From Methanobacteriota archaeon (GTDB lineage Archaea > Halobacteriota > Bog-38 > Methanoflorentales > Methanoflorentaceae), in the NCBI GenBank assembly GCA_963719035.1, contig CAVRAO010000012.1, forward strand, positions 128,001 through 192,000: a stretch of 64,000 bases of DNA. The letters are read 5' to 3'. The notes beneath the pieces were generated by a model. The model saw only the letters and a list, made by a program, of their open reading frames with translations, was not told where the DNA came from and made no database searches. This document shows positions 5,458 through 21,809 of the stretch, piece after piece (position 1 is the stretch's first letter; every line of letters starts with the position of its first letter). A program made the position numbers and the translations under genes.

Positions 5458-6587
5458 TTAAACTATTCCCGGAAGAGAATCTCCTTGAGTTAGCACTTCA
5501 CAGCCGTTATCAGTGATGCATATGACGTCCTCTTTTCGGTAACCTCCGATGCCTGGTGCCGCCAATACCGCGTGCCCAACGGTCACCGTCATACCGGCCT
5601 TGAGGACGATCTCACCGTGTTGTGGGTAGTGACTCGGGTGGGGTACTCCTCAGCCTCAAGTCCAACGCCGTGGATGTAACCGGGAACGACGTACTTACCG
5701 AACTCGGTCTTTTTGATGGACTCAGCCATGAACTGCGTGACCTCCTTGACCTTCCAGCCCGGCTTTACCGCGTTTATGACCCCCTGTTGGGCCTCATTAT
5801 AGGCATCAGCAAGCTTGACGAACGCCGTGCTTACGGGCTTTGCTACCATGCCACCTGCCGCTTCGCCGCATACGAAGGTGCGGGCCATATCACAGGCATA
5901 GAGATCAGCGACGGGGTGAAGGTCAACGATGACCGGATCTCCCGCGTTCATAACCCTGTGAGAGACATAGCCGTGCAAGCCGAGCGAGCGCTCACCTGAG
6001 TTAACAAAGGTGAGAAAACCCAGACGCTCCGACCCCGCCTTTCGTAAGGCGTATTCAGCCTCTCGAGCAACGTCGTTCTCCGTTGCGCCGGCGACGAGCG
6101 CATCTGCCGCTGCCATCATCCCGAGCTCTGCGATGTGAGCGGTCTTTTTCATACGTGCAATTTCGTCAGCCGACTTCACCATACGAAGCTCGCTCATGAT
6201 CTCGTCGTTCTCGACCATGTTAATCTCGGGATTGAGCTTTCTGAACCGAAATACCTCAAATCCGGGAGCGGTGTGCGTATCGAAACCGACCGTCGCTTTA
6301 CGAAGGTCGCTCTCCTTCATAGCGTTAAAGAAGTGCTGCATGAGCTCGTTGACGCTGCTCCAGCCGCGGACGTCGTTCACCCACGTGTGCGCACGAACCT
6401 GCTCCACCTCGGGCTGGAACACGATGATCGTAGGATCAGCGTCTTTATAGAACAACATTCGAGCCTGCCGCCGATAATCTCCCGTGATGTAGTAGTAGTT
6501 CTCAGCCCCTGCAATGAGCATCGCATCGACGCCCTTTGCTCTCATAAGCTCTTGAATCTGCTTTTTTCGTTTGCCGTAGACAGCCAT
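5458..6587 (-). pseudogene. Xaa-Pro peptidase (M24) family gene with an apparent 1-nt deletion near 5640
   Basis: Creatinase-like N-domain, CDMART, HGVGLE..E.P. The C-terminus (HPSHYPQHGEIVLKAGMTVTVGH...GIGGYRKEDV...) continues in another frame to TAA at 5458. May be an assembly error. Confidence 0.85.
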
Positions 6588-18342: not shown

Positions 18343-18864
18343 CTAAGGCTGCTCCAGCAGGTGAGTAACGAGGGCTCCGAATTTGCGCGCGCTCTGTTCA
18401 TCAAGCTTGTTTACTTGCTTAATCGGTACCCCTATAAGTTTAGCAAAATCCTCTATGAGCTTCCTGTCCGTATCGGAGAGCTTGTTAACGTCGAGATATC
18501 CCCCAAACACCTCGATTGCTCGAACGCGCCCTTCAGCGCGCTCTTGCAAGTCTGCCACGTACCGATGCACGAGCTCCTCTTTAGGCACTGCCCCGTAGTC
18601 GACGCAAACAACGAAAAGCGCCACGTCTTTGTCGTTTAATTGATCGCGGTTCGCGGCAAGGAAGTTCACCACACTAGGCAGTGGATGCTCTTCGTAAATC
18701 GGAGAACCGATCACGATGAAGTCGAAACCGCCCGGATCAGCTTCGGCGACGTTCCGTACAACCACGTCGACGTGTCCTTTGCTCGCTGCCCCTTCAGCTA
18801 TCCACCGCGCAACGGTTTTCGTGGAGCCGTATCGCGTGTCGTAAATGATTAGAACGCGAGCCAT
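18343..18864 (-). CDS. Flavodoxin-domain protein (HemG-like)
   Basis: YDTRYGST, GSPIY, FGG; likely start is ATG 18864. Confidence 0.85.
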   Translation of the reverse strand: MARVLIIYDTRYGSTKTVARWIAEGAASKGHVDVVVRNVAEADPGGFDFIVIGSPIYEEHPLPSVVNFLAANRDQLNDKDVALFVVCVDYGAVPKEELVHRYVADLQERAEGRVRAIEVFGGYLDVNKLSDTDRKLIEDFAKLIGVPIKQVNKLDEQSARKFGALVTHLLEQP

Positions 18865-18898
18865 GCCGCCTGTTACACCGTCCGCATGAGTGCCAGCA

Positions 18899-19474
18899 TC
18901 ACGCGTGCAGTTTCTTAAGGAGCCACGCCATATTCTTGCCAAGGGTGGTCATCGTCGCCAAGCCCTCCGCATCATTTTGCACTTCGCCGACAGCTTGGCC
19001 GATCCCGATATTCCAGTAGCTCGATCCGGGAATGATCATCTGACTGATGAGAAAGAAGTGATTGATCGAGTCAAAAGCGTGGATGGCACCAGCTCGTCTT
19101 ACAGCAACGACTGCCGCACCGACTTTGCGCTGAAATATATCGTCATTTGCCCGAGCCACGAAGCCAGCTCGTTCAATAAGCGCTTTAAGTCCAGACGAGA
19201 GGTCAGCAAAGTAAGTCGGCGAACCCAAAATGATCCCGTCAGCTTCGACCATCTTTGCGATGTACTCGTTCACAGCATCGCCAGTCACAGCGCAGCATTG
19301 ATCTTGGTTCTCCTTGCACTCGGAACACGCGATACAGCCTTGGATGTGTGTTCCTGCAAGTTGAATAAGCTCGGTGTCTATCCCCTCTTTTTCGAGTTCG
19401 CTCAACACCTGCTTAATAAGAATTGCTGTGTTACCATCCTTGCGCGCACTGCCGTTAAAAGCTATAACCTTTAT
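18899..19474 (-). CDS. Iron-sulfur flavoprotein / multimeric flavodoxin (Isf-like)
   Basis: NGSARKDGNT, CxxCxxC....C cluster motif, GSPTYF. The expected start position is an ATA codon 7 nt after GGAGG. Confidence 0.9.
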   Translation of the reverse strand: MKVIAFNGSARKDGNTAILIKQVLSELEKEGIDTELIQLAGTHIQGCIACSECKENQDQCCAVTGDAVNEYIAKMVEADGIILGSPTYFADLSSGLKALIERAGFVARANDDIFQRKVGAAVVAVRRAGAIHAFDSINHFFLISQMIIPGSSYWNIGIGQAVGEVQNDAEGLATMTTLGKNMAWLLKKLHA

Positions 19475-19774
19475 TGAAATTCCTCCTCTTTCCTGAGGTC
19501 CTTTGAACGACCCTTCATGGCCAGCACGGAAAGACTCCTTATAACTGTTACGTTGATAATCGGTAGCAGTTCGAAGCAAAGCCTATTGAGGCTATGTGCC
19601 ATTTGCAGCAAAAAACAACGCTGAAGTCTCCAGAATCTTTTCTGGCGGTTTGCGAAGAAGCGTCGTGTCAAAAAAGATCAAGGCGCTTTACGCACTTCAT
19701 CTGTCTGGTTAAGCTGTAGTCACTCTGAGGACGACTGCCTTAAAAGTTCAAACCTATCCCTTGCGCTTAAAATA

Positions 19775-19930
19775 TTAGCTTGAAATCTTGCTTTCGGCAG
19801 GCCATACCTCTTGTTTTGCCGTGTGTTCATTTTTTTCGATGCAAAACGGACATAAGGTGTAGCCATTAAAAGGGTTCATTCGTACCGGCTTGCCACAGCA
19901 GGTACATATTAACATTTCTGCCTCGGTCAT
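19775..19930 (-). CDS. 51-aa zinc-finger microprotein (CxCCG...CPFC)
   Basis: MTEAEMLICTCCGKPVRMNPFNGYTLCPFCIEK...; GAGGGG SD; not in the ORF track. Confidence 0.65.
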   Translation of the reverse strand: MTEAEMLICTCCGKPVRMNPFNGYTLCPFCIEKNEHTAKQEVWPAESKISS

Positions 19931-20130: not shown

Positions 20131-21321
20131 GTGAGGGTGGCAGGTTTGCTCAAGAGTGCAGCTAAGATTCCTCGCGCCACGTGTCAGCTCTTCGGTGCCA
20201 TAAAGGCGATCAGCAACATTAGAGACAGCGTCATTTTGGTTCACGGCCCTAAAGGTTGCGTTTATCACATCAATTACATACTGGGCATGCGGGGCGACAA
20301 GACCTCGAACGTCTATTCGACCTGCATGGATGAAAAAGACGTCATTTTTGGCGCCGGAGATAAACTCAAAAGCGCAATCATTGAGCTAGATAATGAGTTT
20401 GACCCCGCCCTCATCGCTGTGCTCTCGTGCTGTGCTTCCAGCATTATTGGTGAAGACGTCGAAAGTGTAGTAAAAGACGTTCAGACGAGGGCTAAGATAT
20501 TAGGTATAGACGCTGGTGGGTTTGAAGGTGATTATCGATCTGGCTATAGCGAGACGCTCAGGCGACTCGTTGAAGTGCTCGTTGAGCCCTCCCACACCCG
20601 CGAAAAGCTTTCGGTGAATTTGATTGGCCTGTTGAGGGCGGGCCCAGATCTCAGAGAACTCAAGCGCGTCCTAGCGCTTATCGGCGTCCATGTCAACGCA
20701 GTTCTTACGGCAGGTGCTACTATACGTCAGATCGAACACACAGCCTCGGCAGCCTTGAATGTGGTCCTCTGCGAGGCTACTGGCAAGGATGCCGCAGAGC
20801 AGTTGGAAAAGCAGTTCGGAATGCCGTATATTATAGAAGAGCTCCCTATTGGCTATGAAGCCACGTTGCGCTTTCTTGCCCGTGTAGCCGATGCGCTCGG
20901 CATCTCAATGGATCTGGAAGCTATATCTCCTAAGCACCGCATCGAAGCTCCCCAAATGATCGGCAAACGGGTCGCGGTGATGGGTGGTCCGACGCGGGCT
21001 ATTTCCGTTACAAAATTCCTCAAGGAGTACGGCGTTGAACCAGTGCTCGTCGTATCAGACTTTGACGTTAACACGGCCGAACGACTGAGTGGCATCATAA
21101 GTGACCGATGCGAGGTACTTATCGCTCCGGAACACGAGCTCATTCTCGAGCGATGCAAAGCGCAGCACGTCGATCTGATCCTCGGTGGGATGCTCGAGCG
21201 ACCGATCGCGTCACGTCTCGGTGTCGCGCATCTCGACATCATGCACGGAAGTGAAAAAACCGTCGGTTTTGCCGGTGCTGATGCACTCCTCAAACGATTG
21301 AAGGGTGAAGAACAGACGTGA
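20131..21321 (+). CDS. Nitrogenase component 1 family oxidoreductase (stand-alone NifD/E-like)
   Basis: TCQLFGA, VHGPKGC, ST.MDE.DVIFG, SCCASSIIGED: three conserved Fe-S Cys positions. Confidence 0.9.
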   Translation: MRVAGLLKSAAKIPRATCQLFGAIKAISNIRDSVILVHGPKGCVYHINYILGMRGDKTSNVYSTCMDEKDVIFGAGDKLKSAIIELDNEFDPALIAVLSCCASSIIGEDVESVVKDVQTRAKILGIDAGGFEGDYRSGYSETLRRLVEVLVEPSHTREKLSVNLIGLLRAGPDLRELKRVLALIGVHVNAVLTAGATIRQIEHTASAALNVVLCEATGKDAAEQLEKQFGMPYIIEELPIGYEATLRFLARVADALGISMDLEAISPKHRIEAPQMIGKRVAVMGGPTRAISVTKFLKEYGVEPVLVVSDFDVNTAERLSGIISDRCEVLIAPEHELILERCKAQHVDLILGGMLERPIASRLGVAHLDIMHGSEKTVGFAGADALLKRLKGEEQT

Positions 21322-21809
21322 TCACAGAGGGATGTTTAGTCAAAAGCGAAGCGATTCGCGGAACGGTTGGTGCAATTATCCCGTACAAGGAGCGCACGTG
21401 TGCGATTACTGCAGGTCACGTTATCCGCTATGGTAGCGGTGGAGTCGGCACCAAAGTCGTCGTAGACGGATACGAAAGCACGGTCATCTGCCTCTTAAAT
21501 GACTATGATCTGGCGTTAATTGAGGTCCCCCATGAGCATGCAACGCTCTCAACAATTGGGCGTGCCTCCTTCGGTCCAGCTGAACTCGTCACTTACGATC
21601 GACGCATCACATGTCGGGTAATCAACACTGGAAAAAACCTCAACCTATTTGCATTTCCGTGTGGGAACATGCCCACGCCTGGAGACAGCGGTGCCCCGAT
21701 CATCCAGAAGGACGAGGTTATAGGGCTGCTTTCGTCAGTGTTGTACAACAACTGCACCGGGCTTGGAATCTCCTCTGAGGTCTTCGGTAATCCGTTGCGT
21801 TTGAGATAA
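21318..21809 (+). CDS. Minimal trypsin-like (S1) serine protease
   Basis: Catalytic triad motifs TAGHV, DLALI, GDSGAP; GTGA overlap with the upstream gene. Confidence 0.8.
   Translation: MITEGCLVKSEAIRGTVGAIIPYKERTCAITAGHVIRYGSGGVGTKVVVDGYESTVICLLNDYDLALIEVPHEHATLSTIGRASFGPAELVTYDRRITCRVINTGKNLNLFAFPCGNMPTPGDSGAPIIQKDEVIGLLSSVLYNNCTGLGISSEVFGNPLRLR

Follow-up and report, generated by a model that had tools for sequence, protein, structure and literature searches.

Overlapping genes for a single-gene nitrogenase-like protein and a small chymotrypsin-fold protease in wetland methanogens: probably a lineage-specific operon of two independent protein families

In a stretch of archaeal DNA of 64,000 nucleotides (positions 128,001 to 192,000 of contig CAVRAO010000012.1; hereafter the window), the gene of a nitrogenase component-1-like (NFL) protein of 396 aa (20131..21321, + strand), here called the reductase, overlaps the gene of a 163-aa serine protease with a chymotrypsin fold (PA clan; 21318..21809, + strand). 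Does this arrangement reflect a protease that works on, or with, the reductase? A preliminary description of this DNA had answered that it does, in the form of a dedicated two-gene system. The reading preferred here, at a rough probability of 0.6, is that both are real, co-expressed genes which make up one short operon in the family of the window's organism, without being an obligate functional pair; the operon would be a lineage-specific combination of members of two evolutionarily independent protein families. The genome from which the window was taken (G000) measures 2.19 Mb in 13 contigs and is 91 % complete. It belongs to a family (f1) of uncultured methanogens from peat, bog and fen, and profile searches showed that it encodes McrA and NifB, from which it follows that the organism is a methane-metabolising archaeon.

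Both open reading frames (ORFs) begin with GTG, and their overlap, as already given in the preliminary description, can be read directly in the sequence as GTGA (21318..21321, + strand): the GTG of the protease gene occupies 21318-21320 and the TGA of the reductase gene 21319-21321, the junction reading ACGTGATC. A Shine-Dalgarno-like motif, GGGTGA (21303..21308, + strand), is located in the 3' end of the reductase gene, 9 nt 5' of the protease GTG, and may act as its ribosome-binding site. A second GTG at 20137 would yield a reductase of 394 aa, the form seen in database relatives. The tight spacing is not peculiar to the window: in 17 related loci the two genes, judged from tblastn coordinates, overlap or are separated by at most about 15 nt. 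In a single soil RNA library, contigs that are approximately 91-96 % identical to the window span both genes, and one of them, of 390 nt, bridges the junction (21137-21526). The RNA run X1 covered 5 of 30 bins, the uncovered parts being uninformative. These contigs weakly hint at transcription of the pair in a relative.

The product of the first gene is a full-length member of Pfam family PF00148 (E 1.2e-89; 301.4 bits against a gathering score of 28.6; profile positions 1-394 of 399). It matched 19 nitrogenase-family models of NCBIfam, all below their curated cutoffs. The top match was BchB (TIGR01278) with 166.8 bits for a cutoff of 490.35, NifE (TIGR01283) reached 164.8 bits for a cutoff of 505.1, and the equivalog cutoffs of NifD, NifK, NifN, BchN, BchY and BchZ were likewise not attained. 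Upon alignment with curated NifD, NifE, NifK and NifN sequences, the reference NifD (745.7 bits) and NifE (688.6 bits) being taken from another genome, Cys18, Cys43 and Cys101 line up with the three cysteines that hold the subunit-bridging cluster in NifD and NifE; the preliminary description of a 396-aa component-1 protein with three cluster cysteines was thus accurate. Cys214 occupies the column of the NifD/NifE cysteine that binds the cofactor (M- or L-cluster), and the motif MHGS, with its histidine at position 372, aligns with the NHD motif of NifE and adjoins the NifD histidine in an ambiguous register. Cys18, Cys43, Cys100/101, Cys214 and MHGS are invariant among 20 relatives. Among solved structures the best match was the NifEN fusion 9i0g (E 1.3e-35, residues 16-388), followed by NifD, NifK and BchB; the BchB chains in the Protein Data Bank matched at E values of about 1e-26.

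CfbD, the enzyme of F430 synthesis, was considered as a candidate and rejected, as the earlier reader had already judged probable. The CfbD model TIGR03282 gave only 79.7 bits for a cutoff of 268.4, with an alignment limited to the first ~120 residues, and a true CfbD of 501.3 bits is encoded in a cfbE-cfbD-cfbB cluster on contig 2 of the same genome.

The relationship of the reductase to other family members was analyzed with a careful maximum-likelihood tree of 33 PF00148 paralogues from six genomes, in which the rows were labelled by NCBIfam and which holds no reference rows for Bch, Mar, Isr, Nfa or group VI. CfbD formed a distant clade with a support of 100/100. A D/E-type clade (92/94) and a K/N-type clade (85/92) were recovered as well, and the five single-gene rows, the reductase among them, were located in a basal polytomy between these two. 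In the best tree the five rows make up one clade, at a weak support of 52/59. Since the single-gene rows lie in the polytomy, apart from the labelled clades, the reductase falls outside every one of them. Together with the scores below all curated cutoffs, this bears out the earlier suggestion that the protein stands apart from the characterised groups: it is a member of an uncharacterised single-gene archaeal clade, separate from CfbD and not nested in either the D/E-type or the K/N-type clade. No description of such a clade was found in Creative Commons (CC)-licensed PMC and bioRxiv texts; it may appear unnamed in published phylogenies.

Phyletic patterns were derived from a sample of 401 genomes of the phylum, in which a hit at E < 1e-75 was accepted as a reductase orthologue. 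Full-length orthologues, of about 390-400 aa and 38-59 % identical, were found in 20 of the 23 f1 genomes besides G000 and in 23 genomes of other families (f3, 4/14; f4, 5/64; f12, 10/28; f23, 3/3; f25, 1/7). The next-best matches were paralogues, approximately 36-38 % identical over part of their length. Relatives of the reductase are numerous in the databases. G000 carries four PF00148 genes, namely the solo reductase gene, cfbD and one pair of D-like and K-like genes, and a comparable inventory was seen in G002, G013 and G177, in each of which a single solo gene is accompanied by CfbD and by separate pairs of D-like and K-like genes (1, 1 and 2 pairs, respectively). No second PF00148 gene was present in the neighbourhood of the reductase gene in the window or in 30 orthologue loci. 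On contig 1 of G002 (f3) the solo orthologue and CfbD are encoded on the same strand, ~3 kb apart (937956-939080 and 942232-942501); the distance is 17 kb in G013, and in G000 the two genes are on different contigs. In one complete genome of the second f1 genus (L019), a partial second reductase N-terminus (residues 6-75, 80 % identity; 57-266) was observed ~4.5 kb upstream of the intact pair.

The second gene product has its catalytic residues in the order His-Asp-Ser. His34, Asp64 and Ser124 (in the sequence GDSG) as well as C99 and C146 are invariant in an alignment of 17 sequences with identities down to 39 %. There are six cysteines, at positions 6, 28, 58, 99, 115 and 146, and the N-terminus carries no hydrophobic stretch when judged by eye, no signal-peptide tool having been applied. 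The earlier account of a 163-aa protease with an intact triad, six cysteines and no signal peptide is therefore upheld, for the last point by inspection of the N-terminus. Most of the 61 database relatives likewise measure 163 aa. Profile methods detect the relationship poorly: Pfam Trypsin (PF00089) gave 19.1 bits for a cutoff of 20.6 and covered the C-terminal part only, no NCBIfam model matched, and a profile of the protease produced insignificant matches to solved structures only (best E 0.025). An AlphaFold2 model of high quality was obtained (pLDDT 94.7, pTM 0.89). Foldseek aligned it at a probability of 1.00 and TMq values of 0.55-0.73 with SplB, SGPB, Rv3671c and proteases of astroviruses, of arteriviruses and of the viral 3C-like type; there were at least 500 PDB matches at E ≤ 0.001 and, among the matches listed, all are chymotrypsin-fold proteases. 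A feature search agreed with this fold. The protein is thus probably a compact, cytoplasmic chymotrypsin-fold enzyme, as judged from the model and the N-terminus. That the ORF might be spurious was considered and rejected in view of its conservation, triad and fold.

The protease family is small and patchy. Among 1.84 billion proteins it has 75 representatives at E ≤ 0.001 and 30 at E ≤ 1e-10, and in the 401-genome sample it is present in 18 of 23 genomes of f1, 14 of 52 of f2 and 11 of 12 of f21. No longer, fused form was seen among 566 candidates, which is weak evidence that the protease always stands alone. Duplicate copies of the distant homologue stand in tandem at two loci of Methanosarcina type (L041, 6001-6468 and 6843-7307; L051, 10-438 and 1235-1699). 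At L023 (1361-1850, the same site as in L081), from a single MAG, the protease is split, with residues 1-62 and 63-163 in different frames, as a consequence of either a frameshift or an assembly error.

Whether the pair is a system can be judged best from where its members occur together. The two genes are adjacent in 17 of 17 close loci of the contig database and in 17 of 17 f1 loci of the genome sample, two sets that probably overlap. These are not 17 independent observations, because the f1 genomes are kin. Across f1 the proteases are 69-88 % identical. Both genera of the family share the order of a downstream block, which consists of thiL and the genes of an ARMT1-like phosphatase, a CAAX protease and an M48 peptidase, whereas the upstream genes differ; as the whole downstream block is syntenic, vertical inheritance suffices to explain the adjacency within f1. 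Outside f1 the association disappears. When a protease was sought within 1.5 kb at E ≤ 1, none was found beside the orthologue in any of 13 loci of f3, f12, f23 and f25, and the neighbours vary there (aminotransferase IV, tetratricopeptide repeat (TPR) proteins, an SDH protease, an IMS polymerase). Conversely, 52 loci with protease homologues of ~40 % identity, from Methanosarcina, Methanoperedens, Methanobacterium and others, had no PF00148 gene (E ≤ 1e-5) within up to 6 kb; their contexts vary too, and no recurrent neighbour was seen in more than 8 of the 52. The preliminary description had itself named a lack of adjacency in other genomes as an argument against a two-gene system, and beyond f1 the genes are indeed apart at all of these loci (13/13 and 52/52). 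Co-occurrence at the level of the genome is lacking as well: the protease is absent from all 23 genomes of other families that have an orthologue (f3, f4, f12, f23, f25), and none of the 25 protease-bearing genomes outside f1 (f2, f21) contains a reductase orthologue. In addition, comparison with orthologues that have no protease revealed neither a terminus nor an insertion that is peculiar to the f1 reductases. The idea of a dedicated protease finds no support, since the two proteins do not co-occur outside f1 and the reductase has no f1-specific extension to remove. A prediction of the complex of both proteins (score 0.05, mark 0.32) counts neither for nor against binding. The pairing appears to be undescribed, as the earlier reader had supposed: no paper among CC-licensed PMC and bioRxiv texts contains both 'nitrogenase-like' and 'trypsin-like'.

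The preliminary description had called the reductase a stand-alone protein. This holds locally and for the missing K-type partner gene. It does not hold for the genome, which encodes a NifH-like protein and NifB, or for the orthologues of f4, which are coupled to NifH-like genes. PF00142 and PF00148 searches detected a sole NifH-like gene in G000 (C2:588778-589596), beside the D-like/K-like pair. In the f4 genomes the reductase orthologues are 38-42 % identical, a NifH-like gene is located directly 3' of them in 5 of 5 loci, and in all four loci that are long enough a radical-SAM gene matching the NifB model lies alongside in convergent orientation. Neither McrA nor CfbD was found in the four f4 genomes searched, which are 89-99 % complete. 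The coupling to a NifH-like gene, combined with the lack of methyl-coenzyme M reductase (MCR), points to a NifH-dependent, probably homomeric enzyme that would be independent of F430 and methanogenesis.

The f4 junctions show a peculiarity of their own. In the four loci inspected (L135, L136, L138, L139), no ATG, GTG or TTG precedes the P-loop in the NifH-like frame. Instead, a conserved ATA runs into the TAG stop of the PF00148 gene before it (ATAG), ~12 nt after the motif GAGGTGAT; the overlap sites lie at about 7040-7060 in L135, about 6075-6100 (-) in L136, about 5885-5900 in L138 and about 1230-1250 in L139. The sequences suggest that the PF00148 and NifH-like genes of f4 are translationally coupled via a non-canonical start. 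One in-frame TGA was flagged in the NifH-like frame of G399.

The D-like (476 aa), K-like (451 aa) and NifH-like genes of G000 follow each other on contig 2 (588778-592265; loci L002, L003 and L005). The NifH-like protein reaches the cutoff of neither nifH (348.7 for 394) nor CfbC (342.5 for 402), and because of this, one Fe protein may serve CfbD, the D-like/K-like pair and the solo protein. Orthologous D-like/K-like pairs are present in G177 and G322. In the latter genome, a NifH-like/D-like PF00148 fusion of 778 aa precedes a K-like gene (L129, 1453-3786 (-); L133, 866-2152 (-)), and this arrangement has been mentioned for some genomes (Dos Santos et al. 2012).

From these data the following picture can be drawn. 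The product of the first gene would form a homo-oligomer that is reduced, in an ATP-dependent manner, by a NifH-type Fe protein; in G000 the latter would act in trans and be the product of the only NifH-like gene, on contig 2. The reductase may act on an as yet undefined substrate or carry a cluster made by NifB, and its role would depend on neither methanogenesis nor F430. The protease would be a member of a small and patchy archaeal family whose gene acquired its place behind the reductase gene in the common f1 ancestor and was then inherited with the surrounding block; the two proteins presumably do not interact. Several points weigh against this picture. NifH dependence in G000 is extrapolated from orthologues of 38-42 % identity, and the homo-oligomer is deduced from the missing partner gene only. 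The placement of the single-gene clade is tentative, as its joining with the D/E-type clade was not rejected in an AU test (p-AU 0.335). The RNA contigs come from one library, may reflect DNA content and cannot show a single transcript. The overlap or tight spacing persists across two genera whose reductases are only ~65 % identical, which fits selection for co-expression and leaves room for some functional link. Finally, the lack of co-occurrence elsewhere does not exclude a function gained within the f1 lineage.

The last two points lead directly to the idea that the pair is a dedicated system after all, in which the protease matures, regulates or degrades the reductase or its Fe protein and co-translation fixes their ratio. 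It would account for the GTGA overlap with its internal Shine-Dalgarno-like motif, for the retention of the pair in 17 of 17 f1 loci across two genera, even where the upstream genes differ between these genera, and for a protease that, by eye, has no signal peptide and would therefore share the compartment of the reductase; the RNA contig across the junction also fits. We nevertheless consider it unlikely, given that the reductase occurs without the protease in 23 genomes and the protease without the reductase in 25, that the reductase has no propeptide or insertion specific to f1, and that the downstream block is equally conserved, so that synteny alone explains the adjacency. A bolder version would combine such a co-translated, dedicated f1 protease with a reductase that represents, next to CfbD, another homomeric lineage within the nitrogenase superfamily, one that branches at or near the D/K gene duplication, depends on NifH and holds a NifB-made cofactor of the L-cluster type; this combination is regarded as highly unlikely.

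A different proposal leaves the protease out as unrelated and takes the reductase for a NifE-like scaffold or carrier, on which a NifB-made cluster of the [8Fe-9S-C] type would be kept until it is passed on to other proteins. The NifEN fusion as best structural match, the invariant Cys214 in the cofactor column, the alignment of MHGS with the NHD motif of NifE and the NifB-like gene beside the f4 orthologues all speak in its favour. Moreover, passages of PMC12176620 and PMC13474568 describe NifB as essential in non-diazotrophic methanogens and the trafficking of its clusters as unexplained. The clade is patchy among methanogens, however (f3, 4/14; f12, 10/28; f25, 1/7), and because of this the reductase cannot be a general carrier for the activation of MCR; it also occurs in genomes in which no McrA was found, the register of the histidine motif is ambiguous and the cluster chemistry is putative. 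We therefore hold a scaffold function to be quite unlikely. Very improbable, in our view, is an origin of the protease from a mobile element, for instance a virus or plasmid, from which an accessory gene would have landed downstream of the reductase gene without a cellular partner. The very small and patchy family, the varying contexts with tandem copies at the Methanosarcina loci L041 and L051, and the structural similarity to viral 3C-like, astrovirus and arterivirus proteases are what one would expect of such a gene. Its stable chromosomal position, its identity of 69-88 % across f1 and its intact triad are not; in the window, neither an integrase gene nor that of another mobile element was observed beside the protease gene, and bacterial cellular proteases match the structure equally well. 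A short, inherited f1 operon of two independent families thus remains the preferred explanation.

The surroundings of the pair can be described briefly. The stop codon of the protease gene is 11 nt from that of the convergent thiL gene. On the other side, a gap of 550 nt 5' of the reductase gene is followed by divergent genes of an NADPH-dependent FMN reductase (PF03358) and a flavodoxin (PF12724) at 18343-19579 (-), whose position upstream is conserved in the window's genus alone; they might supply a NifH-type system with low-potential electrons. The gap contains an ORF of 51 aa with two CxxC pairs, reminiscent of a zinc ribbon (19775-19930 (-)), that is divergent from the reductase gene. A tblastn search detected it upstream of the reductase gene in the window's genus (nine loci, 73-93 % identity) and not in the second genus, for which four loci include upstream sequence. 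Within ~4 kb the neighbours are flavodoxin, FMN reductase, thiL, the ARMT1-like phosphatase, the CAAX protease and the M48 peptidase. Profile scans found no NifH-like, NifK-like or ABC-transporter gene among them, in agreement with the preliminary description.

The reductase clade is of more value than its link to the protease, and because the pairing is confined to one family, it matters little unless an interaction is shown. According to passages of PMC12176620 (Nature 2025, on the MCR activation complex) and PMC12552129 (Nat Catal 2025, on methylthio-alkane reductase), CfbD alone in the nitrogenase family is homodimeric or homomeric, and the root of this family lies between the D and K paralogues. 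The single-gene clade would offer a useful test of this picture, as it has kept the bridging and cofactor cysteines, branches from a polytomy at the base of the D/K radiation and is found, coupled to nflH and beside a nifB-like gene, in genomes that lack MCR. It would help to address how heterotetramers originated and on which scaffolds NifB-made clusters were first accommodated. In addition, it points to a putative, as yet unassigned ATP-dependent reductase in abundant wetland methanogens.

How do the two proteins compare with known systems? The protease shares its fold and the order His-Asp-Ser with small enzymes such as Spl of S. aureus, SGPB of Streptomyces, Rv3671c (MarP) of M. tuberculosis and the astrovirus and arterivirus proteases (TMq 0.61-0.73). 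With 163 aa it is about 20-40 residues shorter than most of these, no signal peptide or pro-region was seen in it, and the identity in structural alignments amounts to 12-22 %; in addition, its family is archaeal and narrowly distributed.

The reductase resembles BchB/ChlB and BchN of the dark-operative protochlorophyllide oxidoreductase (DPOR, group V) in that BchB is its top NCBIfam match. It scores far under the BchB cutoff, however, has no N/B pair and no L subunit encoded beside it, and resides in a methanogenic archaeon. MarDK, IsrDK and NfaDK (group IV) are NifH-dependent relatives with substrates other than N2, some of them with a NifB homologue, as at the f4 loci. Their D and K subunits are encoded in one operon, according to passages of PMC13474568 and PMC12552129, whereas one subunit gene is present here; this comparison is by gene arrangement. 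NifE and NifEN have the same three bridging-cluster cysteine columns and the same cofactor cysteine column, but the reductase has no NifN partner, lies outside the clade of NifD and NifE, and falls about 60-120 aa short of the length of the reference NifE and NifD. In G000, PF00148 and PF00142 searches brought up only the solo gene, cfbD and the one cluster of D-like, K-like and NifH-like genes, and when the curated NifD and NifK models were scanned against those proteins, none reached the cutoffs.

Most similar in layout is CfbD: in methane-metabolising archaea it, too, is the product of a single PF00148 gene of ~350-400 aa without a K-type partner, and the NifH-type Fe protein with which it works may have its gene at another site. 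The solo clade differs from it in being phylogenetically distant (100/100) and far below the TIGR03282 cutoff, and in keeping the third bridging cysteine and the cysteine of the cofactor column. It is also represented in genomes in which neither McrA nor CfbD was found, and in G000 it exists side by side with the organism's own CfbD.

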